From positions 1,789,279 through 1,853,278 of the forward strand of contig CAWAOJ010000002.1 of assembly GCA_963783725.1 (NCBI GenBank): DNA of 64,000 nucleotides, read 5' to 3'. This document shows, in pieces, positions 1 through 64,000 of this stretch (position 1 is the stretch's first letter; every line of letters starts with the position of its first letter). The translations under genes and the position numbers were made by a program. The stretch is from an uncultured Chloroflexia bacterium. Lineage in GTDB: Bacteria > Chloroflexota > Limnocylindria > QHBO01. The notes under the pieces were generated by a model that saw only the letters and a program-made list of their open reading frames with translations, did not search any database and was not told the DNA's origin.

Positions 1-1
1 G

Positions 2-307
2 ATCTCGCGGCTCATCAAGGGCGATCGCATGCCCTCCCTGGGCACCGCCACCAAGCTGGCGCGCGGCCTTCGCGAGATCCTCGACGAGTCCGAGGGACCC
101 GCCTACTTCGCCAGCCTCGCCACGCGCCAGCTGCTGCCCACCACCCGGGTCGAGTACGCCCTGCGGGGCGACGACGTCCTCAGCGAGAGCGACGTGCGTG
201 AGCTGATGCAGGCATACCTCTCCGTCCGTCGCCGCCGCGTCAGCGGCCGCATCGCGAGCGGCGGCGCCGCCGACCGCAGCGCGAACGGCCTGAGCCGCGG
301 GGCGTAG
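2..307 (+). CDS. 5'-truncated CDS; XRE-type helix-turn-helix protein (C-terminal part)
   Basis: Frame 2 is open from the window edge: ISRLIKGDRMPSLGTATKLARGLREI matches the HTH_XRE recognition-helix pattern (G.R.PSL.TL.KLA.AL). Continues to a stop at 307. No start codon in the window, so it is truncated. Confidence 0.4.
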   Translation: MSRLIKGDRMPSLGTATKLARGLREILDESEGPAYFASLATRQLLPTTRVEYALRGDDVLSESDVRELMQAYLSVRRRRVSGRIASGGAADRSANGLSRGA

Positions 308-334
308 GCCGCCCCGCTTTTCTGGCGCGGCCGT

Positions 335-1708
335 CTACGCGGCCGTCCCCGCCTCCTCTCGGACGCCCTCCTCCATCGGCTGATAGGCGTCGTCCACCAG
401 GCGACCGGCGAGGTAATCGTCGTAGGCCGCCATGTCGAAGTGCCCGTGCCCCGACAGGTTGAACAGGATCACCCGCTCCTCTCCCGCCTCGCGCGCCGCC
501 ACCGCCTCGTCGATCGCGGCGCGGATGGCATGCGACGACTCCGGCGCCGGGATGATGCCCTCGGCCTGCGCGAACTGCAGCGCCGCCGCGAAGCACGGGT
601 TCTGCCTGTAGGCGCGAGCCTCGAGGAATCCCAGGTTGTAGAGATGGCTGATCAGCGGTGCCATGCCGTGGTAGCGCAACCCACCGGCGTGGATCGGCGC
701 CGGCCGGAACTCGTGCCCCAGGGTGTGCATCTTGAGCAGCGGTGTCATGCCGATGCTGTCGCCGAAGTCGTAGCGGTACTCGCCCTGGGTCAGGCTCGGG
801 CAGGACGCCGGCTCGACCGCCAGGAAGCGCGTATCGCGCTCGCCGCTGAGGCGCGAACGCAGGAACGGGAACGCGATCCCCGCGAAGTTGGACCCGCCGC
901 CGGCGCAGCCGATCACCACGTCGGGATAGTCGCCCGCCATCTCCATCTGCCGGATCGCCTCCTGCCCGATGACGGTCTGGTGCAGCAGCACGTGGTTGAG
1001 CACCGAGCCCAGCGCGTACTTGGTGTCGTCGCGTCCCGCGGCGACCTCGACCGCCTCCGAGATGGCGATGCCCAGCGACCCGCTTGACTGCGGATCGGCG
1101 GCGAGGATGCTGCGTCCCGCCTGCGTCTCCTGTGACGGCGAGGCGACCACGGTCCCGCCGAAGACCTCGATCATGCTGCGCCGATACGGCTTCTGCTCGT
1201 AGCTGATCTTCACCATGAAGACCTTGGCCTCGAGCCCGAATAGCCGCGTGGCGAAGGCGAGGGCGCTGCCCCACTGCCCGGCGCCCGTCTCGGTCACCAG
1301 GCGCGTCACGCCCTCCTGGGCGTTGTAGTACGCCTGCGCCACCGCCGTGTTCGGCTTGTGCGAGCCCGACGGGCTGACGCCTTCGTACTTGAAGTAGATG
1401 CGCGCCGGCGTGTCGAGCTCCTTCTCGAGGTTCACGGCACGGATCAGCGGCGACGGGCGGTAGATGCGGTACACGTCGCGCACCGGCTCGGGAATCTCGA
1501 TGAACCGCTCGCTGCTGACCTCCTGGCGGATCAGCTCCATCGGGAAGAGCGGCGCCAGGGCCTCAGGCCCAATCGGCTCCCGCGTGGCGGGGTGCAACGG
1601 CGGCGGCAGCGGCACGGGGAGGTCGGCCGCGATGTTGTAGAAGTGCGTCGGAAGCTCGGCCTCGGGGAGAACGAAACGACGCTGGACGGACTGGTCGGAG
1701 GTGGTCAC
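335..1708 (-). CDS. trpB: TrpB2-type tryptophan synthase beta-like PLP-dependent enzyme
   Basis: Intact 457-aa ORF with the long TrpB2-type architecture and PLP-fold motifs (GSHK lysine region, GGGSNFAG glycine loop). AAGGAG RBS 6 nt upstream of the ATG at 1708. Confidence 0.85.
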
Positions 1709-3745: not shown

Positions 3746-4397
3746 CTAAACCTCGCGCGCGATCGCGAAGCCGAACACGTGTTCCGCACCTGCGGCGCGC
3801 AGCGTCGCAGCGCACGCCTCCAGCGTCGCGGACGTGGTGAGGATGTCGTCGACCACGATCACCGTCGGCGGTGGCCGGGCGGACGAAGCCGGCACGAACG
3901 CGTCGCGCAGGTTGCGCAGGCGTTCGGCCCTGTTGAGCCGGTGCTGCCGGGTGGTCGCCACCTGCCGGCGCAGCAGGGGTCGCACCTCCATCCGCCGCTG
4001 CCGACCGATGTGAGCAGCGAGCAGCGCCGCCTGGTTGTAGCCGCGCTCCCGCTCCCGCTCGGGGTGAAGCGGAACCGGGATCAGCACGCATCGGGCGCTG
4101 ACCGCGGCCAGCACGTCGAAGGCGGGCAGCGCGGCCCGCGCCAGCGAGGTGGCAACGCGGACCATTCCGCCGTACTTCAGCCGCTGCAGCGCTCGCCGCA
4201 GCGCACCTTCATACGCGAACGCCGCCACCGCCAGCTCGAGCGCGTCTCCGACCACCACGCCGGCGTCGGGGGCATAGAACCGGTCGTCCGCGCACCCGGG
4301 GCGTCGCATGAGCCCGACGCACGCCCGGCACATCACGTGCTCCAGTTCGCCCACACGAGGCGCAGGCCGGAGGAAGAAGGATGTCGAGGAGCGCCAT
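3746..4397 (-). CDS. comFC: ComF family protein (ComFC, phosphoribosyltransferase domain); apparent frameshift near 4330
   Basis: The canonical ComFC N-terminus MALLDILLPPACASCGRTG (zinc-ribbon motif) is in one frame (ORF 4209..4397). The remainder (CRAC second Cys pair, then the PRTase motif VIVVDDILTTSATL) is in ORF 3746..4354. Gene order comFC-hpf is conserved in many bacteria. Confidence 0.7.
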
Positions 4398-7209: not shown

Positions 7210-8731
7210 CTAGGTATCCAGTGGTGCGCGGTCGGTAGTACGTTCGTCCTGCTCGTCCGATCGCTCCGCGGGAAGCTCTATCGTGACGGTCGTACCAACC
7301 CCCGGCCGCGAGGTCAACGAAACCTCGCCCGCCATGGCCCTGACGAGACCGCGGGCCGCGTGCAGGCCGATCCCGCTCCCGTCCGGCGCCAGCCGGCGTG
7401 CGGTATCGGCACGGAAGAACTGCTCGAACGCGCGGCGCTGCTCATTGCTGCTCATTCCCGCGCCGCGATCGGCCACGCTCACACGTCCGCGGAAGCCCGC
7501 GGGATCCGCCAGCGATCCGATGGTGACCTCGACAGGACTGCCGGGCTGGCTGTATTTCACCGCGTTGTCGAGCAGCGCCCACATCACCTGCTCGAAGCGA
7601 TCGGGGTCCGCAAGCAGCAGATGTGGCGGGCCGTCGACCGTCAGAGAGAAGGATCGATCCGAGCGCAGCGCCGCCCATGCCCGGCGAATGATCGGCTCCG
7701 GGCGGAAGACCTCCTGCGAGGGCCGAAGCGCGCCTGCCTCGAGGCGCGAGGCTGCCAGCAGCTGACCGACCATGCGCCGCAGCCGATCGGCCTGGAAGGA
7801 GATCATCTCGAGGTCTGCGCTCGAGGTACCGTCGGTCGCGGTCGCCCGCAGCTCATCCGCGAGCGCGCGGATGCTGGTGAGGGGAGTCTGCAGGTCGTGC
7901 GTGACCCCGCGGAGGAAATCACGCTGGACCTCGCCCAGGCGCAACAGCTCGGCGGCCTGTCCTTCGACTCGGCGATACAGGATGGCGTGCTCGATCGCCG
8001 TCGCCGCATGCTCGGCAAGGACGGTCAACATGTCGAGGGTGGCGGCTGACGGCTCGGACCGCCCTTCGCGCGGCGAGATGAGGATGGCGCGCAGCTCGTC
8101 CCCCGAGGCGACGTCCACGACCAGAAATGCACCCCACGGCCCTTCGACCTGGCGCACCGGCGCGTCGCCAGTCACGGCCGCCCAGCGATGCACTTCGAGC
8201 AGCGGTACGGGCGCCGGCCCTGCTCAGCGGCGTAGACGCCCGGCGGGAGCAGCTCCGGATCCGAGGCGAGGAGCACCGCCAGCGACCAGGTCGGATCGCC
8301 GGTGACGGCCACGGTGGTCGCGACGACATCGGTCGCCACGGCCGTTGGCCCCCTCGTGATCGCGGCTTCGCGTGCACTGCGAGCGAGCAGCGCGATCTGA
8401 CGGTTCCGCTCTTCCAGGGCCGCTCCCGCGCGTCGCAGCGCTTCGCTCGGCGCGGCGTCGGCCTGTTCCGATGACAACGGCCCTTGCTCGGCGAGCTCCA
8501 GGAGCGAGCGCAGCTCGCCGCCGAGAAGCCGCGCGCCGACGATCGCCACGATGACCGACCATCCGATCGCTACGACCGTCACGGCGAGCAGGACCGTGCC
8601 CGCGCCGTATCGGTCGAGAATGTCGGGCGCAACCGAGGTGATCGTGGCGAAGACCACCAGGGGTGGCAGCGTGACGACGAGGAGCACGCCAAGCAGTCGC
8701 AGTGACGGGCGGCCCAGGTCCACGGGTATCA
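7210..8731 (-). CDS. Sensor histidine kinase (2 TM - GAF - HisKA - HATPase_c); apparent frameshift near 8200
   Basis: The N-terminal TM pair and start of the GAF domain are in ORF 8172..9146 (residues after the response-regulator stop). The rest of GAF plus HisKA (RDFLRGVTHDLQTPLTSI) and the ATP-binding domain (GSGIGL) are in ORF 7210..8193. The two pieces join across GGCCGGCGCC around 8200-8215. Confidence 0.7.
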
Positions 8732-8741
8732 GGAGGTGACG

Positions 8742-9441
8742 GCCGCCTCGCGTCCCGTCGCGAGCCGGTAGCCGACCCCGCGCTCGGTCAGGAGGTAGCG
8801 CGGCCGATCCGGATCGACTTCTAGCTTCCGCCGGAGGCGGCGGACGGTGACCCAGACATACGAGGGATCGGCTCCGTCCGCGTCGGACCATACTCGGTCC
8901 AGCAGTGTCTCGGTCGGAACGGTGCGGTCGAGCGACGCCGATCAGGATCTGCAGGAACCTGGTCTCGACCGGCGTCAGCGTGGCGCTGCCGGCCGAGGTG
9001 GAGACGCCGCTTGCTGGCCAGATCGATCTCGAGCTCGTCGTCGATGGTGATCGTGGAGCGCCCCGACGACGTGCGCCGCAGCACCCTCTGCACGCGGGCG
9101 ACGAGCTCATCGGGGTCGAACGGCTTGGTGATGTAGTCCTCGGCATAGTCCTCGAGCGCGCGAACCTTCGATTCCGATGCGTCCACCGCGGACAGCACGA
9201 TGATCGGCAGATCCGCCATGCGCTTGATTCGACGGCAGAGCTCGAAGCCGTCCATCCCGGGCATCATCAGGTCGGCCACGATCAGCGCCGGCCAGCCCTT
9301 CTCGAGAACCGAGAGCGCCGCGTAGCCGGAAGGAGCGGTGCGAACGTCGTAGCCCTCGCGGGTCATCCGACGCGCGAGGACGGAGAGAAGGGCCGAGTCA
9401 TCGTCGACCAGCAGGATCGCCGGCCGGATCGCCGGCAACAC
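8742..9441 (-). CDS. OmpR-family response regulator; coding sequence split over three frames (2 apparent frameshifts)
   Basis: Receiver domain (ILLVDDD...DLMMPGMDG...KPF) is in ORF 8821..9441. The winged-helix segment LTPVETRFLQILIG is in a second frame. The C-terminus YVWVTVRRLRRKLEVDPDRPRYLLTERGVGYRLATGR is in a third frame and ends about 8745. Confidence 0.7.
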
Positions 9442-9442
9442 C

Positions 9443-10364
9443 TCAGCTTCCCAGTCCGCCGCCCATGACGGCGATGACGGCCGGCCCGAGGATGACGATG
9501 AAGATCGTCGGGAAGATGCAGCCGACCATGGGGAAGAGCATCTTCACCGGTGCCTTGGCCGCGGCCTCCTCGGCGCGCTGGCGGCGCTCGATGCGCAGCT
9601 GCTGCGACTGGATCTGGAGCACCTTCGCGATCGGCACGCCGAGCTGCTCGGCCTGGACGATGGCGCCGATGAAGTTCGTGACCGGCTGCGCGTCGGCGCG
9701 GTTGGCCACGTCCCGCAGCGCGTCGCGACGGGTGCGGCCCATGCGGACCTCGGCGAGCGCCTGGCGGAACTCGTTGACGAGCGGGCCCTCCATCTTCTCG
9801 ACGACCTTGGCGAGCGCGGCGTCGAAGCCGAGGCCCGCCTCCACGGAGATGGTGAGCAGGTCGAGCGCATCCGGAAGCTGGAGAACCATCTCCATCCCCC
9901 GCGCCCGGATCTTGCGCCCCAGCCAGAACTCCGGGGCCATGAATCCGATCGGCAACCCGAGCAGGCCGAAGAGCAAGCCGCCCGCGGGGCCGGCAATGAG
10001 GCTGAGCAACAGGAAGAAGATGACCGCGAGCGCGATCGCGCCGAGCAGCTTGACCCCCATCCAATCGGCGCCGCGGAGGCCGCCGGGATACCCGGCCCTC
10101 TCGAGCTTCGCGTCGGTGCGGGCGATGACGCCGCCCTCGTCGCGCCCCCGACGCCCGATATGCGACAGCCGCTTGACGAGGGGTCGGAGGACGCGCTCGC
10201 CGAACGGCTGCTGCAGCTCGTACTCCTCCAGAGTCTTCGGCTGGACGACGAGCTGTTCGAGCCGCGCCTGGACCGCATCCTTCTGCGGTCGCGCCGCAAC
10301 GCCGAACGGTGATGAGCAGGACGGCGACGGCGGCGACGACGGCGATAAGGATCTCTGGCTGCAT
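9443..10364 (-). CDS. tadC: Flp pilus assembly protein TadC (T2SS-F domain); apparent frameshift near 10300
   Basis: Start MQPEILIAVVAAVAVLLI at 10364. After a one-base shift the frame of ORF 9443..10060 continues (PFGVAARPQKDAVQARLEQL...MGVKLLGAIALAVIFFLLL...) through a T2SSF domain to a stop at 9443. Confidence 0.7.
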
Positions 10365-10370: not shown

Positions 10371-11368
10371 TTACACCTTGATGTCGACGATGCGTCGGAT
10401 CAGCAGGTAGCCGATGCCCATGCTGATGAGGCCGATGATGAAGAAGACGACGCCCAGCGGAAGTCCGAGCATATTCGGCGGGCTCTTCACCATCGCGCCC
10501 ATGTAACTGGGGCTGATCAGGAACAGGATCCCGGCCAGGCCAACCGGCAGCAGCGTGATGACGTAGCCGCTGTAGCGCTGCATCGCCGTCAGCGTCTGGA
10601 TCTCACCCTGGATGCGTACCCGCTCGCGAATCGTGAAGGCGATCGAGTCGAGGACGGTCGCGAGGTTTCCGCCGACCTGGCTCTGGATGTTGATCGCGGT
10701 GACCATCAGCTCCAGGTCCTCGGACTTGCACCCGTCGCGACATGTTGTTCAGCGCGGGCTGGAGCGCCACGCCAAGGTTCATCTCGCGAACGACGCGGCC
10801 GAACTCCTCGCTGATGGGCGGCCGCGCCTCGCGCGTGATCAGCTCGACGCCCTGCAGGAAGGACGATCCGGCGCGAAGGGTGTTGGCCAGGAGCGTGATC
10901 GTGTCCGGCAGCTGCTTCGCGAACAGCTTCACCCGCTTGCCCTGCCGATAGCGGAGGTAGAAGCGCGGAAAGTACGCGCCGAACGCGAAGATCAGGGCGA
11001 GCGCAATCACGTTGTGGAGGCCGGAGAAGAGGAAGCCGAGGATGTACGCCGCCGCAACGAAGACGAACGGCGATGCGATCCAGGCCAGGATGAACTCGGC
11101 GGGCTTCAGCTTCAGGTCGGCGCGTGCCAGCTCGATGGACAGGCGGGTCGCCATGTCCTGGCGTTCGATGACGCGGTTCAAGCCCGCGACGACCGCCGAC
11201 TCGCGTTCGCCGTCGCCGGCATCTCCATCCATCCCGCCGGCGGATGCGTAGCGCTCGAGGCGGGACGCGACCTGGCCGTCGGAGCCGCTGAACGAGATGC
11301 CGATCGCAATCAGCAGCACGGCACCGGCGGCGAGCGCCGCGATGAGGATGGGGGACAGCGGCATGGCT
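10371..11368 (-). CDS. tadB: Flp pilus assembly protein TadB (T2SS-F domain); apparent frameshift near 10735
   Basis: ATG at 11368 (MPLSPILIAALAAGAVLL), 8 nt after the cpaF stop. The T2SSF domain continues to ...ALNNMSRRV, then shifts by one base into ORF 10371..10706 (SEDLELMVTAINIQSQVGGNLATVLDSIAFTIRER...). Confidence 0.7.
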
Positions 11369-11378
11369 CGGTCAGTCC

Positions 11379-12749
<1,371 letters not shown>

Positions 12750-12850
12750 GGGATTGGGCGCCGCCGACGGTCTCGGCGGTGCCCTCCGCGGCGGGCTTGC
12801 TCACCCGCTCGATCCTCTTCAGCAGTGACATGGAGGCAGCTTCCTTCCCC

Positions 12851-14092: not shown

Positions 14093-14203
14093 CGGGCTCC
14101 TGGGGGACTGACGGCGGCTCGCGGCTACGGCCCGGGCTCGGGCCGACCTGCTCCACGATGCCCGGCACCGGCAGGCCATAGTTCTTGACGAGCAGGTCGA
14201 TCG

Positions 14204-15011
14204 TCACGCCGGTCGTCTTCTCATTCGCGCGTGTCCTGCGGTCGAGCGGATCGTCAGCGGTGAGCGATCCCGCTCGGACATGTCCCGCTGTGCGAACTTG
14301 ACAAGCTCGGCGTCCTGATCGGTTCCGGCGACGACGACGATGAACGCGTCTCGGTGAACTGCTGCGGCTGCGTCTGGCGCCTTCTGTCCCGGGGCTTGGC
14401 GTGGCGCTTGCCTGCTGCGGCGCGACGTTCGTGGCTGACGTACAGGACGCGCTTGTTCTGGAGCACCGTCTTGACGGTTCTCGCGCTCTGCCCAGCCCGG
14501 AGACCGGCTCGAAGCGCTCGCTGCTGTGGATGTGGAATCCGCCGTCTCCTGCAGCACCTGGACGTCCTGCGAGACGACGACATCGACCATGTCGCCCGGC
14601 TTGACCAGGAAGTCGACGCCGGTGGCGCGGTCCAGCTGCAGGGTGACCGCCTTCTCGCCGGGCTTAGCTGCGCCGAGATGTCGACGGTGACCTTGCCGGT
14701 GCCGAACGTATCCTGCGAGACCTGCGATCCTGCGGGCACGGCGACGAGAGCCGGCCGACCGCCGACCTGCGACGGATCCGTGAGCGCGGTACCCGACGAC
14801 GGCGCTGGGATCGACCTGCTTGGTCTCGACCATGTCGGGCGTCACCGGCGTCGCCGATGGCGATGTCCTCTTCGCCACCAGCACGGTGGCCTTCTGCTGC
14901 TCCGGCGGAACGTCGGTTCGCGGGGTTGTTGAGCAGGATCACGATCGCCACGAAAGCGACGACCGCGAGCAGGACCCCGACGAGAATGACCAGGCGATTC
15001 GATCGCTTCAC
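14204..15011 (-). pseudogene. cpaB: CpaB/RcpC pilus-assembly protein, shattered across at least 3 frames
   Basis: N-terminus MKRSNRLVILVGVLLAVVAFVAIVILL (ORF 14664..15011). SAF-domain piece AGSQVSQDTFGTGKVTVDI (ORF 14254..14739). Pieces KAVTLQLDRATGVDFLVKPGDMVDVVVSQDVQVL and DAFIVVVAGTDQDAELVKFAQ (ORF 14204..14884). At least four frame changes. Confidence 0.6.
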
Positions 15012-19299: not shown

Positions 19300-19329
19300 C
19301 GCCGCAGGGTACCCGGTAGACTCCGCCCG

Positions 19330-23876: not shown

Positions 23877-23959
23877 GCGAGCTTCACACGCAGGCGGAGA
23901 TCCTCGCCAGCCACCGCCAGCGCCTCGAGCTCGACGCGCTCGCTGCCGTGACGACTCGG

Positions 23960-26365: not shown

Positions 26366-26369
26366 GGGT

Positions 26370-40462: not shown

Positions 40463-40519
40463 TACCGGCGTTCGACGATGCTGACGCGAGGCGGCTGTTA
40501 CCGGGTCTGATGCACAGGC

Positions 40520-46107: not shown

Positions 46108-46157
46108 GGCCGGATACGCCTATTGCCGGCCTTGCCGGCCTTGGTAATCTGCCTGCC

Positions 46158-52130: not shown

Positions 52131-53419
52131 GTGAACCCGAGATCACGCACCGCCGTCCTGGGAGCCGGAGCGCTCGGTCTGACGGCGGCACTCCGACTCG
52201 CCGAGCGCGGCGACCGCGTCACCGTCATAGAGCGCGAGCCGCTTCCCGGTGGGCTCGCAGCCGGCTTCGAGCTGGAACCTGGCGTGTGGCTCGAGAAGTT
52301 CTACCACCACCTCTTTCGCTCTGACACGCGCGCCATCGCGATGATCGACGAGCTTGGCCTGAGCGACAGACTCGAGTGGCATGCGCCGGTGACGGCGACG
52401 CTGTCCGGTGGTGCGCTGCACCAGCTGGACTCACCGATGTCGCTCCTGCGCTTCTCCCCGCTGTCGCCCATCGCTCGGGCGCGGATGGGTATGACGCTCG
52501 CCGTTCTGAAGGCCATGCCGAATGCGCGTCTCATCGAGGGCCGAACGGCGGCGCGCTGGCTCGAACGATGGATGGGGCGGGACGCATACACCACCGTGTG
52601 GGAGCCGTTGCTGCGTGGAAAGTTCGGCACGGCGGCGCCGGAGATTGCGATGCCATGGTTCTGGGCGCGTGTTCACGATCGCACCCAGCAGCTCGGGTAT
52701 CTCCGTGGCGGCTTTCAGCAGCTGTACACGGCGCTCGCCGAGAGGGTCGAGGAGGCGGGCGGCGAGGTTCGTCTCGGCGAGTCGGTGACGAGCATCCGGT
52801 CTCATGCTGGATCCTTGACGAGTGGAGACGACAGCGGGCGCCGAAACGTTCGACAGGGTGGTTTCGACCCTTCCGAACCGCCTCACCGCGCGCCTGGCGC
52901 CGCAGCTGCCCGACGGATGGAGACGGCGGTACGAGTGGGGCAGTGCCTACGGCGCGCACTGCCTGATCCTCGCGCTGGATCGGCCGCTGACATCGGCCTA
53001 TTGGATCAACATGAACGACCCGGGTTACCCGTTCATGGCCCTCGTGGAGCACACGAATTACGTGCCGGCGTCCGACTACGGCGGTCGCCACCTCGTGTAC
53101 CTGGGCAACTACCGACCGATGGACGACCCGCTGCTCTCGGCCTCGAAGGAATCGGTGCTCGGCACGTTCTTGCCGCACCTCGCCGGCCTGAACTCGGCCT
53201 TCGACGCCTCCTGGGTCACGGACTCGTGGATGTTCTCCGCCCCATTCGCCCAGCCGATCGTGACCGTCGACTATCGCGACCACGTCCCGCCATTCACGAC
53301 ACCCGATTCCGGGTCTCTTCCTCGCGAACATGTTCCAGGTGTATCCGCACGACCGGGGGCAGAACTACTCCATCGAGCTTGCGGAACGGCTCGTCCGCCA
53401 CCTCGGTCAGGGAAGATTG
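52131..53419 (+). CDS. FAD/NAD(P)-binding oxidoreductase (amine-oxidase/phytoene-desaturase-like fold); at least 2 apparent frameshifts
   Basis: N-terminal dinucleotide-binding RTAVLGAGALGLTAALRLAERGDRVTVIE. The middle of the gene is in ORF 52822..53625. The C-terminus IPGLFLANMFQVYPHDRGQNYSIELAERLVRHLGQ is back in the first frame and ends 53419. Confidence 0.55.
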
Positions 53420-53577
53420 ACGTCGTAACCGGGCGGTTGGACCTCGATCTTCGGCTGGATCATCGGGCCGCCGATGGGGCCGAGCTGGTAATCGACCAGC
53501 GGCAGCTCGTGTCCGGTCGCTTTCCACGCGACGGCGAGCAGCAGCACGACGAGGACGGCGCCGAACAGGAAGCGCAT
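53408..53577 (-). CDS. Small (56-aa) predicted membrane protein
   Basis: ATG at 53577, MRFLFGAVLVVLLLAVAWKATGHELPLVDYQLGPIGGPMIQPKIEVQPPGYDVNLP, stop at 53408. Below the ORF-track size cut-off. Found by hand translation. Confidence 0.3.
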
Positions 53578-53853: not shown

Positions 53854-54600
53854 CTACCCCGCGAGCGCGACCCTCACCCGCGGCGTGAAGAGCAGCGCCA
53901 GCACGTAGAGCACCGCGACCAGCAGCGCCAAAGCCTGGTAGCCGGTGATCAGTGCCAGGTACTCGAGCAGGCCACCCACCATGGCGCCCAGCAGGTTCGC
54001 GGCGAAGCCGAGGTTCGAGGTGTCCACGTCGCGGAAGCGCTGCGCAAAGACGAGGTTCGCCGCGAAGATCGGCGTGAAGTAGACGAGGACCGCCGCCAGC
54101 AGCCGAGGCCCGAACGAAAGCCCCAGCAGCGCGTGCGGCGGGATGAGGAAGCCCACGATGACCGCCGCCACGAGCAGCGCGTAGAGGACGGTCGGCCGCG
54201 GCAGGCGGGTCCGTCGCACCACCTCGATGGCGGCCAGGACCGAGAGCAGCACGCCGCCGAACACCAGCGCGTTGACGAACCAGGTCGTGCCGAACAGCAG
54301 CGCGAACTGGACGACGCTCTTCGTCTCGAGCAGCAGGAACGCGGCTCCCATGAAGAACAGGTCCGTGTACCGGCGCATGCCGCCGGAAGGGTCCGCCCGC
54401 GCTGCGCACCAGCACCAGCGAGGCGAGCAGGATCAGCGCGATCGCGACGCAGGTACAGCGTGTGGGATCCCGCGGTCGCGCAGGTACGGGAAGGGGTAGT
54501 CGTCGGCGACGCGGGCGCGGGGGCGTCGCGGCCACGTGCGGTGGGTGCACGCCGCAGCTGACCGCATCGGGCTCGAGGCCGATGGTGAGGACCGCCATGT
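53854..54600 (-). CDS. Polytopic membrane protein (TM bundle resembling the N-terminal repeat of the SpdS-like membrane proteins); apparent frameshift near 54385
   Basis: ORF 53854..54378 (MRRYTDLFFMGAAFLLLETKSVVQFALLFGTTWFVNALVFGGVLLSVLAAIEVV...) is preceded in another frame by ...CVAIALILLASLVLVRSAGGPFRR. Either a separate gene or the C-terminal part of the upstream SpdS-like gene. Confidence 0.4.
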
Positions 54601-54639
54601 GGCGCACGGTCCCGACGCTGTCGACGCACGGCGCATGGC

Positions 54640-55869
54640 CGAAGGCGGCCGCCAGCGTCGCCGACGTACCGATCGAGCAGCCACGACTCCCGGTAGTAGT
54701 TGTACATGGCGAACGCGCCGCCGGGCTTCAGGTGCCGCCGAGCGCTGTCCATCGCCTCGCGCGTGAACAGGTAGCTCTCCAGTCGCAGCGACGACTGGCC
54801 CTGCACCAGCGTCAGCGAATCGGGCAGCGCGAAGAGGATGAGGTCGTACTTCGCATCGGTCTGCTCAAGGAAGGCACGGCCGTCGTTGATGTGCACGCTG
54901 ACGCGCGGGTCCTGGTACGGCTCGTCGGGATGCAGCTGCTGCCCAAGCTGGTACAGGCGCGGGTCGATCTCGACCGCGTCGACGTGCTTCGCGCCCTGCG
55001 GCAAGCGCGATGGCGACGTCGGTGCCGCTGCCCGCCCCGACGATCAGCATGTCGTCCAGCGCGGACGCCGCTGGCGCCGCTGGTACGGGATGAAGTAGAC
55101 CGGCGACTTCTTGCGCCGCTCGGCCACGGAGTGCATCGCTGATGTGGGATGCCGTTGACGTCGAGCTCGTAGGTGCCGCGTTCCGCCGGCACCGGCGTCG
55201 ACTGACACCTTGTAGTACGGCGACCAGCTGTAGTTGGGGACGATCGTCTCGCGCGCCAGCATGAAGACCAGCGCCGACGACCGCCGCGACCTGGAGCACC
55301 CGCCAGCCCCGCCGCTGAAGCAGCAGGAAGAGGATGCCGACGACCGTCCCCCACGCGACCGGCGGCGCCCACAGGAACGACAGCAGCGAGAACGCGCCGA
55401 TCCCCAGCACGCTGCCGGTGATGTCGAGCCGGTACGCGTCGAGCGGCTCGAACTCCACGAACGTCCGCGCCACGCCCTCGCCGATCATCGCCATCACCGA
55501 CGCCACCGCCAGGAAGATGACCGGGAGCGTGATCCAGGTCGGCAGGCCGCTGGGCGTGAAGGTGCCGAAGTAGATGATGTCGCTGCCGCTGCGGTCGATC
55601 TGGACGGGGAAGACGAGCACGAAGCCGACGAGCAGGGCCAGCACGACCGGCGCCCAGCGGAACGTGTCGTGCCTCGCCCGCCCGCGCAGGAAGCCGACCC
55701 CGATACCCAGGAAGCTCCCGAGCAGCACGAAGTTCGAGAAGTACGACAGGTAGACGACGTTCGACCCCAGCCACCGGATCAGTGCCAGCTCCACGAACAG
55801 CATCGAGGAAGCTGAGCAGCACCAGCCGCAGGCGGGGGTCCATCGCGGCGGATGGTACGGCATGGCCAC
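54640..55869 (-). CDS. Membrane-anchored spermidine-synthase-like protein (TM domain + aminopropyltransferase-like domain); apparent frameshift near 55040
   Basis: ORF 54865..55869 has the TM bundle (MLFVELALIRWLGSNVVYLSYFSNFVLLGSFLGIGVGF...) ending in the SAM-binding MLIVGAGSGTDVAIALAAG. It continues in ORF 53949..55004 (AKHVDAVEIDPRLYQLGQ...INDGRAFL...YDLILFALPDS...GGAFAMYNYY). Similar to the C-terminal domain of 36102..38363. Confidence 0.55.
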
Positions 55870-56064
55870 GCACGGGAGCGGTCGCGACCGTATCGGTCCG
55901 ATTCCGACCCCTTAACTCGGCGACCGACCGCCGCGACCCTCTTACGGGTCCCCTGACGACCCGGTAACGCCCAACCAGGCCACCCGCGCGCCGTTAAGGG
56001 GTCGTCGTCGGACCCTTACCGCCTGCGCCCAGCGAACCCCCCCGGCTGTGCGGCCGGCCGCCGC

Positions 56065-56835
56065 TCACCCGTGCGCGGCGGCGTTGGCCTTGATCGCGTC
56101 GTGGAGGTACTGCGCCAGCCCCGGGGCGATCTTCTCGTAGGTTGCCGTGAAGCGCGGATCGGCCAGGTACATCTCGGCCAGGCCGACGTGCATCTCGTAC
56201 GAGCACGGGTAGAACGCGTCGTCGATCTGCTTCCGATGCGCCTCGGCGCCGGCCATCGCCTCCGCGCTGTCCGCGGGCTTTCCCGACCGCATGGCCGACA
56301 CGACCTGCGCGATCGCCGCCTCGCCCTGCGCCTTGATGCGCTGCCAGTCCGCCTTGGTGTACTGCGACGCGCGCCGGGCTGACTCGCGGTACGCATCGGT
56401 CTCGCCCCAGCGCTCCTCGACCTCGGCCGCGTGCTGGTCGGGGTCGAAATCGCCGAACACCTCGAGGCGCTCCTCCGGCGTCAGATTGATTCCCATGCTG
56501 TCTGCCTCCATTGCCTTCTCGACGGCCGCGCTCATCCGCTCCAGCCGACCGATGCGGTCGCGCAGCATTGCGTGCTGGCGCCGCAGATGACCGATGCGGT
56601 TCGTGCCGCCGTCGTTCAACACGCTCTTGATCTCGTCCAGGCCGAACCCGAGCTCCCGGTAGAAGAGGATCTGCTGCAGCCGATCCAGATCGGCGTCGCC
56701 GTAGCGCCGGTAGCCGGCGTCACTCCGCGCCCCTGCGTGCAGCAGCCCGATCTCGTCGTAGTGGTGCAGCGTCCGGACGGTGACGCCCGAGAGCCGCGCC
56801 ACCTCGCCGACCGTGAGCCCCTCGGTTCGTGCCAT
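56065..56835 (-). CDS. MerR-family transcriptional regulator with TipAS-like C-terminal domain (TipAL/Mta type)
   Basis: LTVGEVARLSGVTVRTLHHYDEIGLL MerR HTH, coiled-coil, then a TipAS-like antibiotic-binding domain. Confidence 0.8.
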   Translation of the reverse strand: MARTEGLTVGEVARLSGVTVRTLHHYDEIGLLHAGARSDAGYRRYGDADLDRLQQILFYRELGFGLDEIKSVLNDGGTNRIGHLRRQHAMLRDRIGRLERMSAAVEKAMEADSMGINLTPEERLEVFGDFDPDQHAAEVEERWGETDAYRESARRASQYTKADWQRIKAQGEAAIAQVVSAMRSGKPADSAEAMAGAEAHRKQIDDAFYPCSYEMHVGLAEMYLADPRFTATYEKIAPGLAQYLHDAIKANAAAHG

Positions 56836-56887
56836 GCCGCGCACCATAGACCCTCACGTTACGTCAGAGTCAAGGGCGGCCAGCTCG

Positions 56888-57280
56888 CTAAGGCCCGCTC
56901 CCACCGCCGACGAGCCGCCATGCTCCATCCGCCTGCTGCTTCAGGCTGTAGAACCAGGTGTTGTCGCCTTGGTTCATCGACTCGTCCGCGCCGCTGACCG
57001 TCAGCGTCGTCATGAACGTCAGCTCGCCGGGATCGAACCGAACCGGTTCGCCCTCGACCCTCGTGGCCAACACGCGGACCTGCCCACAAAGGTCGCCGTT
57101 GGAACTCGTCATCGATTCAGACGCGAGCGCGTGGGCGGTCGTGCAATCTCCGGCGCGCAGAGCGGCGAGGTACGCGTCGAGGACTTCCCGGGCGGGAGCC
57201 TCAGGTCTTGGAAGCGCTGCGGGAGTGCAGGCCACCAGGACCACTGTGAGCACACCGAGACACCAGGCCGTCGATCTCAC
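56888..57280 (-). CDS. Putative lipoprotein, hypothetical
   Basis: Signal peptide with lipobox LVAC. 130 aa. No recognised domain. Confidence 0.45.
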   Translation of the reverse strand: MRSTAWCLGVLTVVLVACTPAALPRPEAPAREVLDAYLAALRAGDCTTAHALASESMTSSNGDLCGQVRVLATRVEGEPVRFDPGELTFMTTLTVSGADESMNQGDNTWFYSLKQQADGAWRLVGGGSGP

Positions 57281-57410
57281 CGTACGTTGCTCCCTCGGCC
57301 CGTCGCTTTCGCTCGAGCGTGACGTTCGACGCTCCCTGTGTCAACGCATGGACGAGATAAAACTCGCCGAACTTTGACTGGCGGACCGCTTTGGCATCCA
57401 AAGCGCTACG

Positions 57411-58736
57411 ATGCCGGCCATGACCCCCGCTCGCTCGCCCGGCCGCTCCTCGCCCGATCACGAGGGCGCCATCGGCAGCGCGGCCTACCACCGTCACCGG
57501 CGCACGCATCGGTCCAGGGGACACGACCGGCCGCGCATCCTGCAGCTGCTCGCCACCGGGGGAACCGGCGGCGCCCAGGAGAGCTACACCGGGCTGCTGC
57601 TGCACCTCGATCGCGAGAAGTACGACGTCCGGGCGCTGTCGCTCTCTTCGGGCAACGCCGTCTCGCGTCTGGGACGTCTGGGCGTGCCGGTGGACGTCAT
57701 CGACGAGGCCGATGACGAGGCCGCCGTCCGCGAGCTGGCCGCGTACCTGCGCCGCGAGGAGATCGACCTCGTCCACGCGCACATGTACCGCGCCGAGGTG
57801 ATCGGGACGCGGGCCGCGGTCGCGGCCGGGACGCCGGTGATCGTGGCGACCGTGCACTCGTCGCGCGTCCGCTCCGCGGAGGACGTCGAAACGCTGGCGG
57901 CACTGACGCCGCAGATCGACCGGCTGATCGTGCCCTCGGAGAGCATCCGCGCCAAGGTCGAGCGCGAGGGGCGGGCGGGCGCGGAGTTCGCGGTGATCCC
58001 CAACGGCATCGACCTGTCGCGCTTCTCGCTGCCGACGCCGCGCTGCTCGCTGCGCTCCGACTTCGCCATCCCCGCGGATGCGTTGCTGGCAGGAGTCGTG
58101 GCGCGGCTGGAGCCGGAGAAGGGGCACGCCTACCTGATCGACGCCTGGCCTGCGGTCGTCGCCGCCGTCCCCGACGCCTGGCTGGCGATCGTGGGCGAGG
58201 GCTCGCAGTGCGCCGCCCTGAAGGCCCGGGCGCGGGCGCTCGGCGGCCGCGCGGCCGCGCAGGTCGTCTTCACCGGCCGCCGCGAGGATGTCAGCGCGCT
58301 GACGCGCGACCTCGACATCGCGGTCCTGCCCAGCCTGCGCGAGGCGCAGGGCATCTCGATCCTGGAGGCCATGGCGCGCTCGCGCCCGGTGGTCGCCTCC
58401 GCAGTCGGCGGCATCCCCGAGGTCATCACCGACGGCGTGGACGGGCTGCTCGTTCCTCCGGCGTCCGCATCGGGCTTGGCCGATGCGATCGTGCGCCTGG
58501 CGAACTCGCCGGCACTGCGCGCCGAACTGGGCGCTGCCGGGCGCCGAACGGTCGAGGACCGCTTCAGCCTGACCGCGATGGTGCGCCGGGTCGAGCAGAC
58601 GTACGACGAGGACCTGCTGCGCGCCGGCGCGCTCCCCCCGACGCGCCCGGCGCGCGTCGCGTCGCGCCGCTCACGGGCGGCGGGCTCAGCCCGCGGACCG
58701 CGCCGCGCTCGAGGTGCCGCCCGTCTGAGACGCTAG
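57411..58736 (+). CDS. GT4 family glycosyltransferase (glycosyl transferase group 1)
   Basis: ILQLLATGGTGGAQESY N-terminal GT-B domain. C-terminal E..E motif region (LPSLREAQGISILEAMARSRPVVASAVGGIPEVI). The first about 40 residues of the raw ORF are Arg/His-rich, so the true start is probably near 57530. Confidence 0.75.
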   Translation: MPAMTPARSPGRSSPDHEGAIGSAAYHRHRRTHRSRGHDRPRILQLLATGGTGGAQESYTGLLLHLDREKYDVRALSLSSGNAVSRLGRLGVPVDVIDEADDEAAVRELAAYLRREEIDLVHAHMYRAEVIGTRAAVAAGTPVIVATVHSSRVRSAEDVETLAALTPQIDRLIVPSESIRAKVEREGRAGAEFAVIPNGIDLSRFSLPTPRCSLRSDFAIPADALLAGVVARLEPEKGHAYLIDAWPAVVAAVPDAWLAIVGEGSQCAALKARARALGGRAAAQVVFTGRREDVSALTRDLDIAVLPSLREAQGISILEAMARSRPVVASAVGGIPEVITDGVDGLLVPPASASGLADAIVRLANSPALRAELGAAGRRTVEDRFSLTAMVRRVEQTYDEDLLRAGALPPTRPARVASRRSRAAGSARGPRRARGAARLRR

Positions 58737-59188
58737 GCGACGACCGGCCCGCTGCGATCGCCGAGCCGAAGGACGGCGAGGATCAGCAGCTCGATCAGGA
58801 TCCAGCCGACCAGCGCGACCGTGGCAGCCACGTCGAACACGCTGCGCCCGACCGGTCGGACCTGGTCGATGGTGAAGATGCCGCGGAACGGCGCCACGAA
58901 CGGCTCGGTGATGCCGTAGATGCCGTCCACGATCGCGTTGCCCTCGTTCGCGCCGAGCAGCAGCAGCACGATGCGCAGCAGCAGCAGCGCGAACAGGATC
59001 CCGAACAGCAGCGCGATCACGCGCCGCGCGTAGTAGAGCGGGCCGGGGCCGGTGGCGACCGTGGTTCCGCCCACGTTCACGTTGGATGAGACGGGCGGTG
59101 CCGCGACGACGGGTCGCTCGCGTTCCACGATGCGCTCGCGCTCGACGACCTCGGTGTCATCGGTCAGTGGATCTCGCTCGTAGGTCAT
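58733..59188 (-). CDS. YggT-family membrane protein
   Basis: ATG at 59188 preceded by AAAGGAGG. YGITEPFVAPFRGIF YggT motif and two TM segments. The upstream part of the raw ORF is rejected. Confidence 0.6.
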   Translation of the reverse strand: MTYERDPLTDDTEVVERERIVERERPVVAAPPVSSNVNVGGTTVATGPGPLYYARRVIALLFGILFALLLLRIVLLLLGANEGNAIVDGIYGITEPFVAPFRGIFTIDQVRPVGRSVFDVAATVALVGWILIELLILAVLRLGDRSGPVVA

Positions 59189-59253
59189 GGTGATTCGAGC
59201 CTCCTTTGGAGCCTGCGCTGCACCGAAGCACGGACCATGCCAGCGCTCGGCCG

Positions 59254-59937
59254 CTATTCGAGCGGGAAGCCGTGCGCGCCGAGAAGCGGGACGAACACCA
59301 CCGAGTCGAGCTCGCGCGTGCGCAGCTCGCCGCCGTGGCGCTCGACCAGGGTCAGCACCTGGTGCTCGCGCGAGCCGACCGGCATCACCAGCCGGCCGCC
59401 CTGCGGCGATACCTGGTCCAGCAGCGGCTGCGGAATGCTTGGTCCGGCGGCGGTGACCAGGATCACGTCCCACGGCGCGCCGCCGGGATCGCCCAGCGTT
59501 CCATCACCGATGCGGATCGTCACGCGCTCCCCGTACCCGGCGGCATCCAGGCGCCGTCGCGCCCCGTCGGCCAGCTCGGGGAGTCGCTCGATGGTCGTCA
59601 CCACGGCGCCCAGCTCGGCCAGGATCGCCGCCTGGTAGCCGCTCCCGGTCCCGATCTCCAGCACCCGTGCCCCGGTCCACCCGCTCGGCGGCCGTGCGAT
59701 GTGCGTCATGGCCGCCACGACGTACGGCTGGGAGATCGTCTGCCCGCCGGGCAACGGCAGGGCCCGATCGTCGTACGCGTCGCGCGGGTTTGCGCCGGGC
59801 GGCAGGAACGCCTCCCGCGCCACGGTGCGGAAGGCGCGCAGGATGTCCGGATCGGTCAGTCCGCGGGCGGCGATCTGCTCGCGAACCATGCGCTCGCGCG
59901 CGTCGACCGATGCGGCGCGTGCGTGAAGCCAGCGCAT
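59254..59937 (-). CDS. pcm: Protein-L-isoaspartate O-methyltransferase
   Basis: GQTISQPYVVAAMT, VLEIGTGSGYQAAILAELG and IERLPELA motifs. 227 aa. Confidence 0.85.
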   Translation of the reverse strand: MRWLHARAASVDARERMVREQIAARGLTDPDILRAFRTVAREAFLPPGANPRDAYDDRALPLPGGQTISQPYVVAAMTHIARPPSGWTGARVLEIGTGSGYQAAILAELGAVVTTIERLPELADGARRRLDAAGYGERVTIRIGDGTLGDPGGAPWDVILVTAAGPSIPQPLLDQVSPQGGRLVMPVGSREHQVLTLVERHGGELRTRELDSVVFVPLLGAHGFPLE

Positions 59938-59970
59938 GCCGCGCGGCTCGCGCCCAGCGGCGCGAGCGGG

Positions 59971-60255
59971 CTATGCCTGGGCTGGGGTGGTCGTGCTGCT
60001 GGCGCTGCGCGTGCGGCTGCGGCCGTTGCCGGCCTTCGCCTCGGTCTTGCCCTCGTCCGTCGCCGACGCCGAAGCGCCGTTCGCGCCCGAGTCGAAGGTG
60101 CCGAGCGTCGCTGCGTCGAGCACGTCGTTGAGCAGGCGGTCAGCCTTCTCGCGGACCATTCGTCGCGTCTCCGCGCCGCTCCGGGGAGCGAGCAGGATGC
60201 CGACGGCCAGGCCCATGAAGAAGAAGCGAACCGCGATTCGTACGCGGCTGAACAT
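59971..60255 (-). CDS. YtxH-like (DUF948) small membrane-associated protein
   Basis: FFFMGLAVGILLAPRSGAETRRMVREKADRL is the YtxH N-terminal pattern. Confidence 0.5.
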   Translation of the reverse strand: MFSRVRIAVRFFFMGLAVGILLAPRSGAETRRMVREKADRLLNDVLDAATLGTFDSGANGASASATDEGKTEAKAGNGRSRTRSASSTTTPAQA

Positions 60256-60332
60256 GCGTCAACCCTCGATGCGTGTGCGGGTGGTTGTAGCGCAAGAAGG
60301 ATACCACCCGTCCCTGCGGGGCCTGTCCGCGC

Positions 60333-61784
<1,452 letters not shown>

Positions 61785-62403
61785 TCGGAGCCTCCGTGTT
61801 TGCCGTCGCTGAGCGACAGAAGGACGACCAGTATGCCAGTCGTCCGCTAACCGTACAAGCGAGGGATCAGGGACTGGGCGCCGCGGACGAGGAGATGCTC
61901 GGCGCCAGGCTGAAGCTGGAGCTCGGCCCTAGCGAGGGGATCGGCTCGAACCGTCGGCGCGGGAAAGAAGCGCGACGGAACGCCGACGAACGCCAGCACG
62001 AACATCAGGACGAAGGCGGCCACCACGACCGCGACCCACGGCCGGGCCAGCGCGTCGCCGCGTGGCGGCAGCGCACCGCGGTAGCCCGGGGCTCGTTCGG
62101 CCGGCGTGCTGCCGCGTCGGTTCGGTCGCTCGTCGCTCATCGGTCTCCTTCTCGTCGCCGGATCGCGGCCGAGGCGCGCCGCAGGCCGGCGTCAATCGAC
62201 GATGCCCTATCAGGGAGCCGCGCCTCCGCATCGGTCAGGCGAGCCTTCCATCGTCCAACGTCCGCGCGACCGCGAGGCACGCCGTGCTGTGCGGCGTCCC
62301 ACAGGGTCCAGGCGAGCAGCCCCAGCGCGCCGCTGACGACCACCGCCAGGGCGACGACGGTCAGCTCCAGCAGCAGTTCCACGGCGGACGAAGGCTAGCA
62401 GAC

Positions 62404-63975
62404 CTAGCGCGCGTTGCGCATGGCGGGCAGGAAGGCGCCGACGAGGCCGGCCGCTGCGCCGATGCCACCACCGGCGATCATCACCAGCGACGGCCCGATG
62501 ACCTGCGCGGCCCACCCCGCCAGACCCATGCAGAGCGCCATGACGCCGAAGACGAGCGCCTGGCGCGTCGAGATGACGCGGCCCATCAGCCGCTGCGGGG
62601 TGCGCTCCTGGAACAGGGTGATGGTCGGCACCAGCCAGACGACGTTGAAGGCGCCGATGCTGAAGAAGGCGACCAGCGCGGGCACCGGCTGGTCGGTGAA
62701 CCCGGCGGCGGCCAGGCTGAGCCCCATGCCCACGAACCCCACGATGGCCAGCGGACCCTTGTTCCAGCGCTTGGGCAGCTGACCGATGAGCAGGCCGGCG
62801 ACGACGCTGCCGAGCCCCAGCGAGGCCATCAGCAGCGCGTAGTTCTGCGGGAACGGGATCCAGCTGTGGTCGAGGACCTTCTCGGCGTAGATCAGGCTGC
62901 CGACGATCTCGGTCGCGACCGCCACCTGCGCCACGGTGCTGACCAGGGTGTTGGTGAACAGCTCGCGCTGCCGTACGAGGAAGCGCCAGCCCTCGACCAT
63001 CTCGCGCCAGATGGACGCGGGAGCGACGGCCGCCTCGCCCGATTCGGGGTGGCCGACGATGATCGACCACAGCAGCGTGGCCGATACGAGGTAGGTCACC
63101 GCGTCGAGCAGGAAGGCGGCGCTGATCAACGTCCCGAGCGCGCCGACGACGACGCCGGCGATGGGATAGCCCAGCAGGTCGGCGATCGTCTCGTTCACCG
63201 TGCTGGCCGAGTTCGCCGTGACCAGCTCGTCCTCGCCCACGATCTGCGGGATGAGGGCGTTCTTCGCTGGGCGGAAGAGCAGGCTGACCGTCGCCACCGC
63301 GAAGGCGATCAGGTAGACCAGCGCGACGTTGATCTCGATGGCGATCGGGACGAGCAGCACCAGGCCGCTGCGCACGACGTCGGAGACGATCATCGTCCAG
63401 CGCCGATCCCATCGGTCCACCAGCGCGCCCGCCAGCGGGCCGAGAAGGACGTTGGGCAGCGCGGTCGCGGCGAAGGTGATCCCGATGTCCACCTCCGTGC
63501 CGCGCATCACCAGCAGCGAGCCGAGCGCGATCTGGTGGATGCGGTCGCCCATGAACGAGATGAGCTGCCCGGTCCAAAGCAGGCTGAAGTTTCGGTTCCG
63601 AAGGAGGGTGAGGTAGGGAGACTGCCCGCGGGGCGCTCTCGGCGCTTCGACCTCGGCGCCGGCCTCCCTCGGCTGCGGCAGCGAGGGCACGAAGCCGCCC
63701 GGGGCGGGCAGGGCCGCGGTTCCCGCGCCGAAGCTGAGGTTGGTCCGGAAGTCGGCCGGAGCGCTGGGACGGAGCGCCGTCGGACCCAGGTTGAAGGCGG
63801 GCAGCGAGCCGCGCTGCGGCCGCGTCATGGAGTAGACGATCGTCCAGAAGATGCCCATTGCCAGCAGGATGTCGCCGACGCTCACGACGTCGCGCAGGAA
63901 TGGCAGCGGGATGGGGATGACGTCGCCGAAAATGCCGCCGGTCGCCACGAACTGCGCAGCCGTGGCGGCCGGCAA
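62404..63975 (-). CDS. MFS transporter (with about 110-aa N-terminal extension/linker of uncertain status)
   Basis: From SPYLTLLRNRNFSLLWTGQLISFMGDRIHQIALGSLLV onward there are 12 TM MFS features. The N-terminal about 110 residues (hydrophobic segment then Pro/Ala-rich linker) remain open to the window edge and may belong to a separate upstream gene truncated at 64000. Confidence 0.6.
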   Translation of the reverse strand: MPAATAAQFVATGGIFGDVIPIPLPFLRDVVSVGDILLAMGIFWTIVYSMTRPQRGSLPAFNLGPTALRPSAPADFRTNLSFGAGTAALPAPGGFVPSLPQPREAGAEVEAPRAPRGQSPYLTLLRNRNFSLLWTGQLISFMGDRIHQIALGSLLVMRGTEVDIGITFAATALPNVLLGPLAGALVDRWDRRWTMIVSDVVRSGLVLLVPIAIEINVALVYLIAFAVATVSLLFRPAKNALIPQIVGEDELVTANSASTVNETIADLLGYPIAGVVVGALGTLISAAFLLDAVTYLVSATLLWSIIVGHPESGEAAVAPASIWREMVEGWRFLVRQRELFTNTLVSTVAQVAVATEIVGSLIYAEKVLDHSWIPFPQNYALLMASLGLGSVVAGLLIGQLPKRWNKGPLAIVGFVGMGLSLAAAGFTDQPVPALVAFFSIGAFNVVWLVPTITLFQERTPQRLMGRVISTRQALVFGVMALCMGLAGWAAQVIGPSLVMIAGGGIGAAAGLVGAFLPAMRNAR

Positions 63976-64000
63976 CAGGACGTGGAAATGGTCACCGGCC

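Follow-up and report, generated by a model that had tools for sequence, protein, structure and literature searches.

A series of genes in the stretch of 64,000 nucleotides analysed here (the window) can be read only by switching frames at single positions, which raises the question of whether these genes are decaying in the organism or are misreported by the sequence. Our analysis indicates that the frame breaks are very probably single-base consensus errors of the deposited assembly, most likely a patchily corrected long-read MAG of a Limnocylindria-like member of the Chloroflexota.

To locate the breaks, intact orthologues were aligned to the window in a frameshift-aware manner. In the 38,890 nt of coding DNA that were checked by homology, this revealed 62 frame breaks of a single base, distributed over 16 of the 34 genes checked and reaching their highest numbers in a PglC-PglF fusion (18), an SpdS-like membrane gene (12) and cpaB (9). 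Of these breaks, 48 are high-confidence, 12 are lower-confidence and two are Pfam-only. All 60 aligned events are either +1 (an extra base in the window) or −1 (a missing base), and isolated 1-nt gaps were also seen in nucleotide alignments to orthologues. As a control, the same aligner detected no breaks in the 18 other window genes; on related loci, two breaks emerged from some 20 gene alignments. Each gene listed in the original prediction as requiring a frame switch indeed needs at least one, although the extent was understated: the overall density is about 1 break per kb rather than the 1 per 2-3 kb proposed, and three patches reach about 1 per 100-170 nt.

In every listed gene, the frame switch falls inside one homologous protein. 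Orthologues from L001, L081, L083, L084 and P0241 align across every break, with homology resuming in the shifted frame, and the orthologue ORFs are uninterrupted in the short-read assemblies L001 (k127), L081 (k141), L083 (JGI) and L084 (k141). The best non-self homologues are 64-85% identical. Once repaired, the genes span 97-100% of their homologues, and single Pfam matches bridge the junctions.

The search for breaks began with a GC3 frame plot, which was too noisy for strand calls and was replaced by a Viterbi path through a codon model. This path detects only a subset of the breaks, because the 30-70 nt segments between breaks are invisible to the model. It also detours around stops, as a result of which a −1/+1 pair in the gene at 43754-45094 mimicked a nonsense codon; the apparent in-frame stop at 44446 is a product of this pair and not a nonsense mutation. 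Two frame changes seen by the codon-model path only, between comF and hpf at 3749 and between the TadE-like and TadG-like genes at 6589, are ordinary gene boundaries, and the chain at 46931-49890, frameshifted according to the model, consists of three intact genes with short overlaps. Candidate breaks at 15066, 8739, 3714, 3676, 11386, 10369, 22289, 22083 and 21896 were dropped as alignment artefacts of untranslated upstream sequence or C-terminal tails. Positions 12765 (upstream of the cpaF start), 50189 (C-terminus of a GT87 gene) and 58674 (C-terminus of a GT4 gene) were left out of the count. The methyltransferase at 27663-28520 is only half matched by its Pfam model, yet it is one continuous ORF and carries no break. 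Scans for tRNAs and Rfam families found nothing.

For comFC, the Tad pilus genes and their regulators, the breaks are arranged as follows:

3751..4397, minus strand: comFC, an extra base at about 4343 (lower confidence), across which the L001 orthologue aligns
7213..8733, minus strand: sensor histidine kinase (HisKA + HATPase_c) lacking one base at about 8204-8219
8734..9443, minus strand: OmpR-type response regulator with an extra base at each of 9006 and 8936 relative to the L001 orthologue
9446..10364, minus strand: tadC, an extra base at 10307
10374..11370, minus strand: tadB, an extra base at 10728, bridged by the Pfam T2SSF match
11380..14094, minus strand: cpaF and cpaE, both reading frames unbroken
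14095..15011, minus strand: cpaB (SAF + RcpC), about nine breaks between 14236 and 14918, three extra and six missing bases

The comFC break cuts the N-terminal CxxC part off from the remainder of the protein, and in the OmpR-type regulator the Pfam Trans_reg_C match bridges the second break (8936). Break density in cpaB is about 1%; four of its nine breaks are lower-confidence, and one is bridged by the Pfam SAF match. The adjacent cpaF and cpaE share 91% and 78% amino-acid identity, respectively, with L001 (tblastn). Both had been named as intact neighbours, together with a 753-aa SpdS-like gene and an ntrC-like gene, and all four are free of breaks.

The remaining broken genes are mainly glycosylation and membrane genes:

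17664..19324, minus strand: PMT_2-like membrane glycosyltransferase with a single extra base close to the 3' end (17754)
19325..20796, plus strand: membrane gene, three extra bases (19804, 19991 and 20145)
22259..23843, minus strand: Wzy_C-TPR O-antigen-ligase-like gene, about five breaks (23165, 23110, 22614, 22576 and 22335)
23844..26407, minus strand: PglC-PglF fusion (Bac_transf + CoA_binding_3 + Polysacc_synt_2), 18 breaks, 15 extra and three missing bases
26371..27543, minus strand: DegT-family aminotransferase with a single extra base (26937)
42867..43764, minus strand: GT87 glycosyltransferase, an extra base at 43395
43754..45094, minus strand: GT87-like (DUF2029-type) 450-aa membrane gene, a missing base at 44482 and an extra base at about 44443
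45094..46110, minus strand: UPF0104 / LPG_synthase_TM gene, broken near 45936 and near 45642 (both placed by the codon model alone)
52131..53420, plus strand: FAD amine oxidase with one extra base at 52821 and another at 53302
53857..55843, minus strand: SpdS-like membrane protein, 12 breaks between 54379 and 55804, eight extra and four missing bases

For the membrane gene at 19325..20796, two independent comparators agree to the base at 19991 and 20145 and lie at most 3 nt apart at 19804 (19807). A Wzy_C match bridges a junction in the Wzy_C-TPR gene, for which the comparator L082 is itself imperfect, and a single Pfam match (positions 3-302 of 302) bridges both breaks in the UPF0104 / LPG_synthase_TM gene. 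PglC and PglF are frameshifted as predicted, but what had been listed as separate genes is a single fusion gene, 856 aa long in L081, with 17 of its 18 breaks lying within 24546-26050, that is, 1.5 kb of a 2.5-kb gene. Similarly, the predicted membrane protein at 53854 is frame-broken but not separate, being the C-terminal part of the SpdS-like gene at 53857..55843, whose orthologue in L084 measures 665 aa.

The breaks are strongly uneven among genes (G = 124, df 33, p = 2e-12). Their clusters are sub-genic and end mid-gene, with a density of about 1% in the patches, and two long stretches are clean:

26938..43394: clean stretch of 16.5 kb, no frame break detected
55805..64000: clean stretch of 8.2 kb (GT4, PCMT, ntrC-like, MFS), no break detected

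The former holds a polysaccharide block of 62-65% GC and the intact 753-aa SpdS-like gene. Because of this non-uniformity, the original prediction of systematic indel error in a long-read assembly needs rewording: indel error is supported, while its distribution is patchy and not systematic. Local GC content does not appear to be the cause, with an average of 0.707 at events versus 0.676 in the background and no break in the GC-richest stretch (58-60 kb).

The indel spectrum is unlike that of natural bacterial mutation. High-confidence events comprise 39 extra versus nine missing bases, and 25 of the 35 resolvable insertions match neither neighbouring base. The proposed link with G/C homopolymers did not hold, as a run of at least 4 lies within 5 nt of 0% of the breaks versus 4.3% of background positions. 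A search around the breaks for motifs (methylation-type, slippery context) gave no k-mer enriched after multiple-test correction.

Massive real pseudogenisation, in which the Tad pilus, the PglC-PglF/DegT/Wzy glycan pathway and several membrane glycosyltransferases would be decaying, would account for the concentration of lesions per gene (18, 12 and 9 versus 0 in neighbours) and for the fact that all broken genes have dispensable cell-surface functions. Several lesions clustered in particular genes are also typical of real pseudogenes, and many adjacent genes interrupted by several lesions each are found in Mycobacterium leprae and in recently host-restricted symbionts. Nevertheless, this explanation is very unlikely. 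Nonsense codons are absent throughout: no in-frame stop occurs in 5,243 repaired codons, against an expectation of 4-14 (P(0) = 0.016 to 1e-6) if 2.5% of substitutions create stops and each indel is accompanied by 3-10 substitutions. Larger deletions alongside the frameshifts were not found either, and codon-sized indels relative to orthologues are few. In a relative-rate test of PglC-PglF, the most damaged gene, lineage-specific substitutions were neither in excess (27 window-unique amino-acid changes versus 54 in L082) nor flattened by codon position (30/18/103 window-unique changes at the three positions). This gene has been kept under purifying selection up to the present, and relaxed selection in the window lineage was not detected in the PglC-PglF fusion or in DegT, the two genes tested. 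Events are exclusively plus or minus 1 nt, and insertions outnumber deletions 4:1, whereas bacterial pseudogenes reportedly show a deletional bias. Moreover, most insertions are not duplications of a neighbour, none lies at a run of at least 4, and the clusters stop mid-gene. The window therefore differs from reductive genomes of the M. leprae type in its lack of nonsense codons, larger deletions and relaxed selection, in its insertion bias and in its sub-genic clusters. Decay of the Tad pilus and the glycosylation machinery, which the original prediction had envisaged if the indels were real, is not supported.

A mixed origin, with artefactual dense patches and a few isolated breaks (such as comFC 4343, PMT 17754 and GT87 43395) representing real recent inactivations, is less improbable but still unlikely. 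Sequence alone cannot separate an isolated break from a very recent real frameshift, and some isolated breaks lie near gene termini, where they are perhaps tolerated. However, the isolated breaks match the dense patches in their spectrum, each being one additional G or C that is not a copy of a neighbouring base. They occur only in those parts of the window that hold dense patches and are absent from both long clean stretches (16.5 kb and 8.2 kb). Restoration of the frames in vivo by programmed ribosomal frameshifting or transcriptional slippage is effectively refuted already. Coding information does continue after each break, although nothing more specific favours this reading, and the proteins of prfB, dnaX, IS3-family transposases and phase-variable loci are likewise readable only by a frame change. 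Recoding would, however, need both +1 and −1 shifts at arbitrary codons and as many as 18 sites in one gene, and no common slippery motif is present. Unlike known programmed-frameshift or phase-variable genes, the window has dozens of sites and neither a conserved slippery site nor a repeat tract, and the orthologues run through the corresponding places as ordinary continuous ORFs. A biological origin of the indels themselves, for example through untemplated single-base insertions in a recent burst, is extremely improbable.

The breaks are present in the public record, are single-base, have intact coding sequence under selection on either side and are missing from the accurate assemblies of relatives. 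A frameshifted tadB fragment with an unambiguous ATG start, its out-of-frame tail included, has an identical protein entry in NCBI/ENA, encoded on a 2,238,515-bp contig, demonstrating that the errors sit in the deposited assembly. Exact NCBI and ENA entries on the same contig were also found for cpaF and an HTTM-DCC1 protein, while an exact protein look-up of the DegT N-terminal fragment with five guessed starts gave no match.

The sequencing platform was probably long-read. The closest relatives represented by megabase contigs are MAGs assembled from Nanopore reads only (PMC12313526), long-read consensus indels are known to break genes, chiefly below about 40-fold coverage (PMC9262707), and frame-breaking indels in long-read consensus are described in the proovframe preprint. 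Cases of Nanopore or PacBio consensus indels (IDEEL test, short-read polishing, proovframe) resemble the window in their single-base nature, in split ORFs matching consecutive parts of a homologue, and in the combination of a very long contig, an uncultured organism and clean short-read assemblies of relatives. They differ in that the window breaks are not concentrated in homopolymers, are insertion-dominated and are confined to patches. The breaks are not of the classical Nanopore homopolymer type; nor do they resemble 454-type error, since the window indels are not concentrated in homopolymer runs. Among the relatives, the Nanopore MAGs L003-L007 have Tad genes nearly without frame breaks, and the window assembly would therefore be unusually poor in places. 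L082, another 'contig_N' assembly, carries three breaks in its PglC-PglF gene, whereas the short-read assembly L081 carries none. Taken one at a time, each isolated single break might be genuine.

If the breaks are consensus errors, the genes would be intact in the organism itself. Patches of about 1-1.5 kb would have kept roughly the read-level indel error (~1%), with sporadic errors every 1-2 kb as well as long clean stretches outside them. Since every extra or missing base puts translation out of frame, gene callers give truncated products with out-of-frame tails. The patchiness may stem from local low read depth or from collapsed strain variation. It is conceivable, albeit doubtful, that the error patches mark loci differing among co-existing strains (cpaB, Wzy_C, the PglC-PglF fusion and the SpdS-like gene), in which case fewer reads would cover each haplotype and the collapsed consensus would fail at surface genes. 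Frame-break density would then indicate indirectly which surface loci are microdiverse within this uncultured Limnocylindria population.

The non-homopolymer, insertion-biased and patchy signature implies that homopolymer-focused checks miss some long-read consensus errors. Chimeric out-of-frame proteins enter public databases in this way, and at least one is already there. The finding is a quality flag rather than biology, and the genome needs re-polishing or frameshift-aware annotation; otherwise, annotation would give pseudogenes or gene fragments both for the Tad pilus (tadB, tadC, cpaB and regulators) and for a large cluster of envelope-glycosylation genes. Given that the breaks look like consensus errors, the Tad pilus and glycosylation genes are to be read as intact, and inferring loss of pili or of glycan synthesis from this genome would be wrong.

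The DNA under study (GC 62-73%) carries a Tad/Flp pilus cluster and a large envelope-glycan cluster; scans of the window for tRNAs and Rfam RNAs found none.

Gene content of the window.
Tad/Flp pilus cluster: TadE/TadG-like, sensor kinase (HK), OmpR-type regulator (RR), tadC, tadB, cpaF, cpaE, cpaB
Envelope-glycan cluster, enzymes: DegT, PglC-PglF fusion, Wzy_C-TPR, many GT87 and PMT_2-like membrane glycosyltransferases
Envelope-glycan cluster, other members: two SpdS-like membrane proteins, HTTM-DCC1, UPF0104
Lower-GC block, 27500-40000: Polysacc_synt flippase, GT2s, methyltransferases, PMT_2-like protein, 753-aa MFS-like/SpdS-like fusion

The CpaF ATPase shares 91% identity with its counterpart in L001, a short-read MAG of Candidatus Limnocylindria, and 83-86% with those of several 'uncultured Chloroflexia' MAGs from the Microflora Danica long-read set. 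A Flp-pilin-like small ORF is present in single copy upstream of cpaB (15240-15494); a homologous 87-nt stretch occurs in 2-3 tandem copies in related Nanopore MAGs (L003, 6376-6812; L005, 6229-6992). Membrane glycosyltransferase paralogues are unusually piled up at 38364-51856 and 20711-21613 (at least seven GT87/DUF2029-type genes, two SpdS-like membrane proteins, an HTTM-DCC1 fusion, UPF0104 and PMT_2-like genes), and part of this set is repeated in the short-read locus L084.

Frame breaks were screened for using a six-frame codon-usage Viterbi path, which showed dozens of same-strand frame changes at junctions without a stop. Proteins of syntenic comparison loci (L001; L081 and L082, via DegT homologues; L083 and L084, via HTTM-DCC1 homologues) were aligned to the window with a purpose-written frameshift-aware dynamic-programming aligner, and the gene at 43754-45094 was compared with the protein P0241 and related proteins. 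False positives are rare, since the aligner found nothing in 18 window genes used as controls and just two breaks in about 20 gene alignments of related loci. Frame changes in the codon-model path at the comF/hpf (3749) and TadE-like/TadG-like (6589) junctions proved to be ordinary gene boundaries. Candidate breaks at gene termini, at 12765 (upstream of the cpaF start), 50189 (GT87 C-terminus) and 58674 (GT4 C-terminus), were left out of the count because the homology around them is too weak. In the stretch at 21598-22321, which separates the end of Wzy_C-TPR from the GT87 gene at 20711-21613, the Viterbi path jumps among three minus-strand frames; as no homologue or Pfam match was found to cover this stretch, it may hide more frame breaks.

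Altogether, 62 breaks were located across 38.9 kb of coding sequence checked against homologues, affecting 16 of 34 genes, so that the originally estimated rate of about one per 2-3 kb was too low. Every gene listed as broken in the original prediction was confirmed, most with more breaks than listed.

Frame breaks per gene.
PglC-PglF, one fused gene (856 aa in L081): 18
SpdS-like gene, whose C-terminal part had been listed separately as a membrane protein at 53854: 12
cpaB: about 9
Wzy_C-TPR: about 5
Membrane gene at 19325: 3 (two comparators agree on the same base for two and within 3 nt for one)
OmpR regulator, amine oxidase, UPF0104, gene 43754-45094: 2 each
comFC, kinase, tadC, tadB, DegT, GT87, a PMT_2-like gene: 1 each

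Once the frame was restored, the junctions were crossed by single Pfam matches in the DegT, Bac_transf, T2SSF, SAF, Trans_reg_C, Wzy_C, GT87, LPG_synthase_TM and Amino_oxidase proteins. The 5,243 repaired codons contain no in-frame stop; 2.5% of random substitutions in them would create one, and at an approximate ratio of 3-10 substitutions per indel 4-14 stops are expected (probability of none, 0.016 to 1e-6). The one apparent stop, at 44446, is the product of a -1/+1 pair enclosing a conserved 'PGYLLGDVRYAL' segment, not a nonsense codon. Protein-level conservation is strong in the segments between breaks, and the coding information is kept across them. In the short-read assemblies of relatives, all ORFs are uninterrupted.

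The most heavily affected gene (23844-26407, about 850 aa) fuses PglC (Bac_transf) to PglF (four TM helices, CoA_binding_3 and Polysacc_synt_2), joining a phosphoglycosyl transferase with a sugar 4,6-dehydratase; the fusion is intact in the short-read relative L081 (856-aa ORF, 11320-13890). Seventeen of its 18 breaks fall within 24546-26050, 1.5 kb of the 2.5-kb gene, and the remaining 1 kb is almost free of them. In a three-way comparison of the window, L081 and L082, a locus from an independent 'contig_N' long-read assembly, window-specific nucleotide changes at codon positions 1/2/3 numbered 30/18/103, and lineage-specific amino-acid changes 27 in the window versus 54 in L082. The window lineage is therefore neither faster nor less constrained, and selection is still visible. 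The 'ERRSNRPRRRYT' segment between two breaks is identical in L081, and the GxGxxG motif is likewise conserved. L082 itself has three breaks in this gene, two of them only a few bases away from breaks in the window: a -1 followed by a +1 is needed at nearly the same two places (window 25205-25345; L082 12262-12400), flanking the PglF GxGxxG motif. In both, the -1 may reflect the same missing C in GGCC(C)GATGCTC, which would suggest a context-specific sequencing error common to the two assemblies.

All events are +1 or -1 nt. The 48 high-confidence events comprise 39 extra and 9 missing bases, and 25 of the 35 resolvable insertions differ from both neighbouring bases and so are not slippage. 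The proposed link to G/C homopolymers was not borne out: a run of at least 4 was present within 5 nt at none of the events, against 4.3% of background positions, and no k-mer enrichment was found around break sites. This indel spectrum is unlike that of natural bacterial indels. The distribution is patchy at sub-genic scale, with three patches of about 1% break density, break-free stretches at 26938-43394 (16.5 kb) and 55805-64000 (8.2 kb), and strong per-gene heterogeneity (G = 124, df 33, p = 2e-12). Relaxed selection works on whole genes or operons, consensus quality on contig stretches. The lower-GC block at 27500-40000 (62-65% versus 68-72% on both flanks, with distinct codon usage) is entirely free of breaks, and could represent either a glycan island gained by horizontal transfer or just a part of the contig with better coverage.

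Exact matches in the NCBI and ENA protein collection, all from one 2,238,515-bp contig, were obtained for cpaF, the HTTM-DCC1 protein and a truncated tadB product. The latter ends in a 45-residue tail read in the wrong frame, which shows that the frameshift is part of the deposited record. For an uncultured lineage from soil or sediment, a contig as long as 2.24 Mb suggests that the assembly was built from long reads. Long-read consensus sequences retain indels that fragment gene calls, and metagenomic bins under about 40-fold coverage require additional polishing (PMC9262707; proovframe preprint). For the Microflora Danica long-read MAGs, Flye assembly was followed by one round of Medaka polishing without short reads, and their authors noted Nanopore-associated errors in low-coverage MAGs (PMC12313526). 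Because the indel density in the patches, about 1%, resembles read-level accuracy, these may be stretches polished with little or no usable depth, for instance strain-variable surface loci. However, the errors differ from textbook Nanopore errors in being homopolymer-independent and insertion-biased, and, unlike in the window, the Tad genes of the Nanopore MAGs L003-L007 are nearly clean, which also fits that picture poorly.

Six independent lines of evidence point to assembly error rather than decay. The indel error favoured in the original prediction is supported by the absence of stops, retained selection, preserved coding information, indel spectrum, patchiness and clean short-read relatives, but the errors are not uniformly spread as 'systematic' would imply. 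A minority of isolated single breaks could be real. On every criterion tested, the breaks depart from genuine reductive pseudogenisation, programmed frameshifting and phase variation; they most probably represent the same phenomenon as the known long-read assembly indels that give false pseudogenes, and are not a biological feature.
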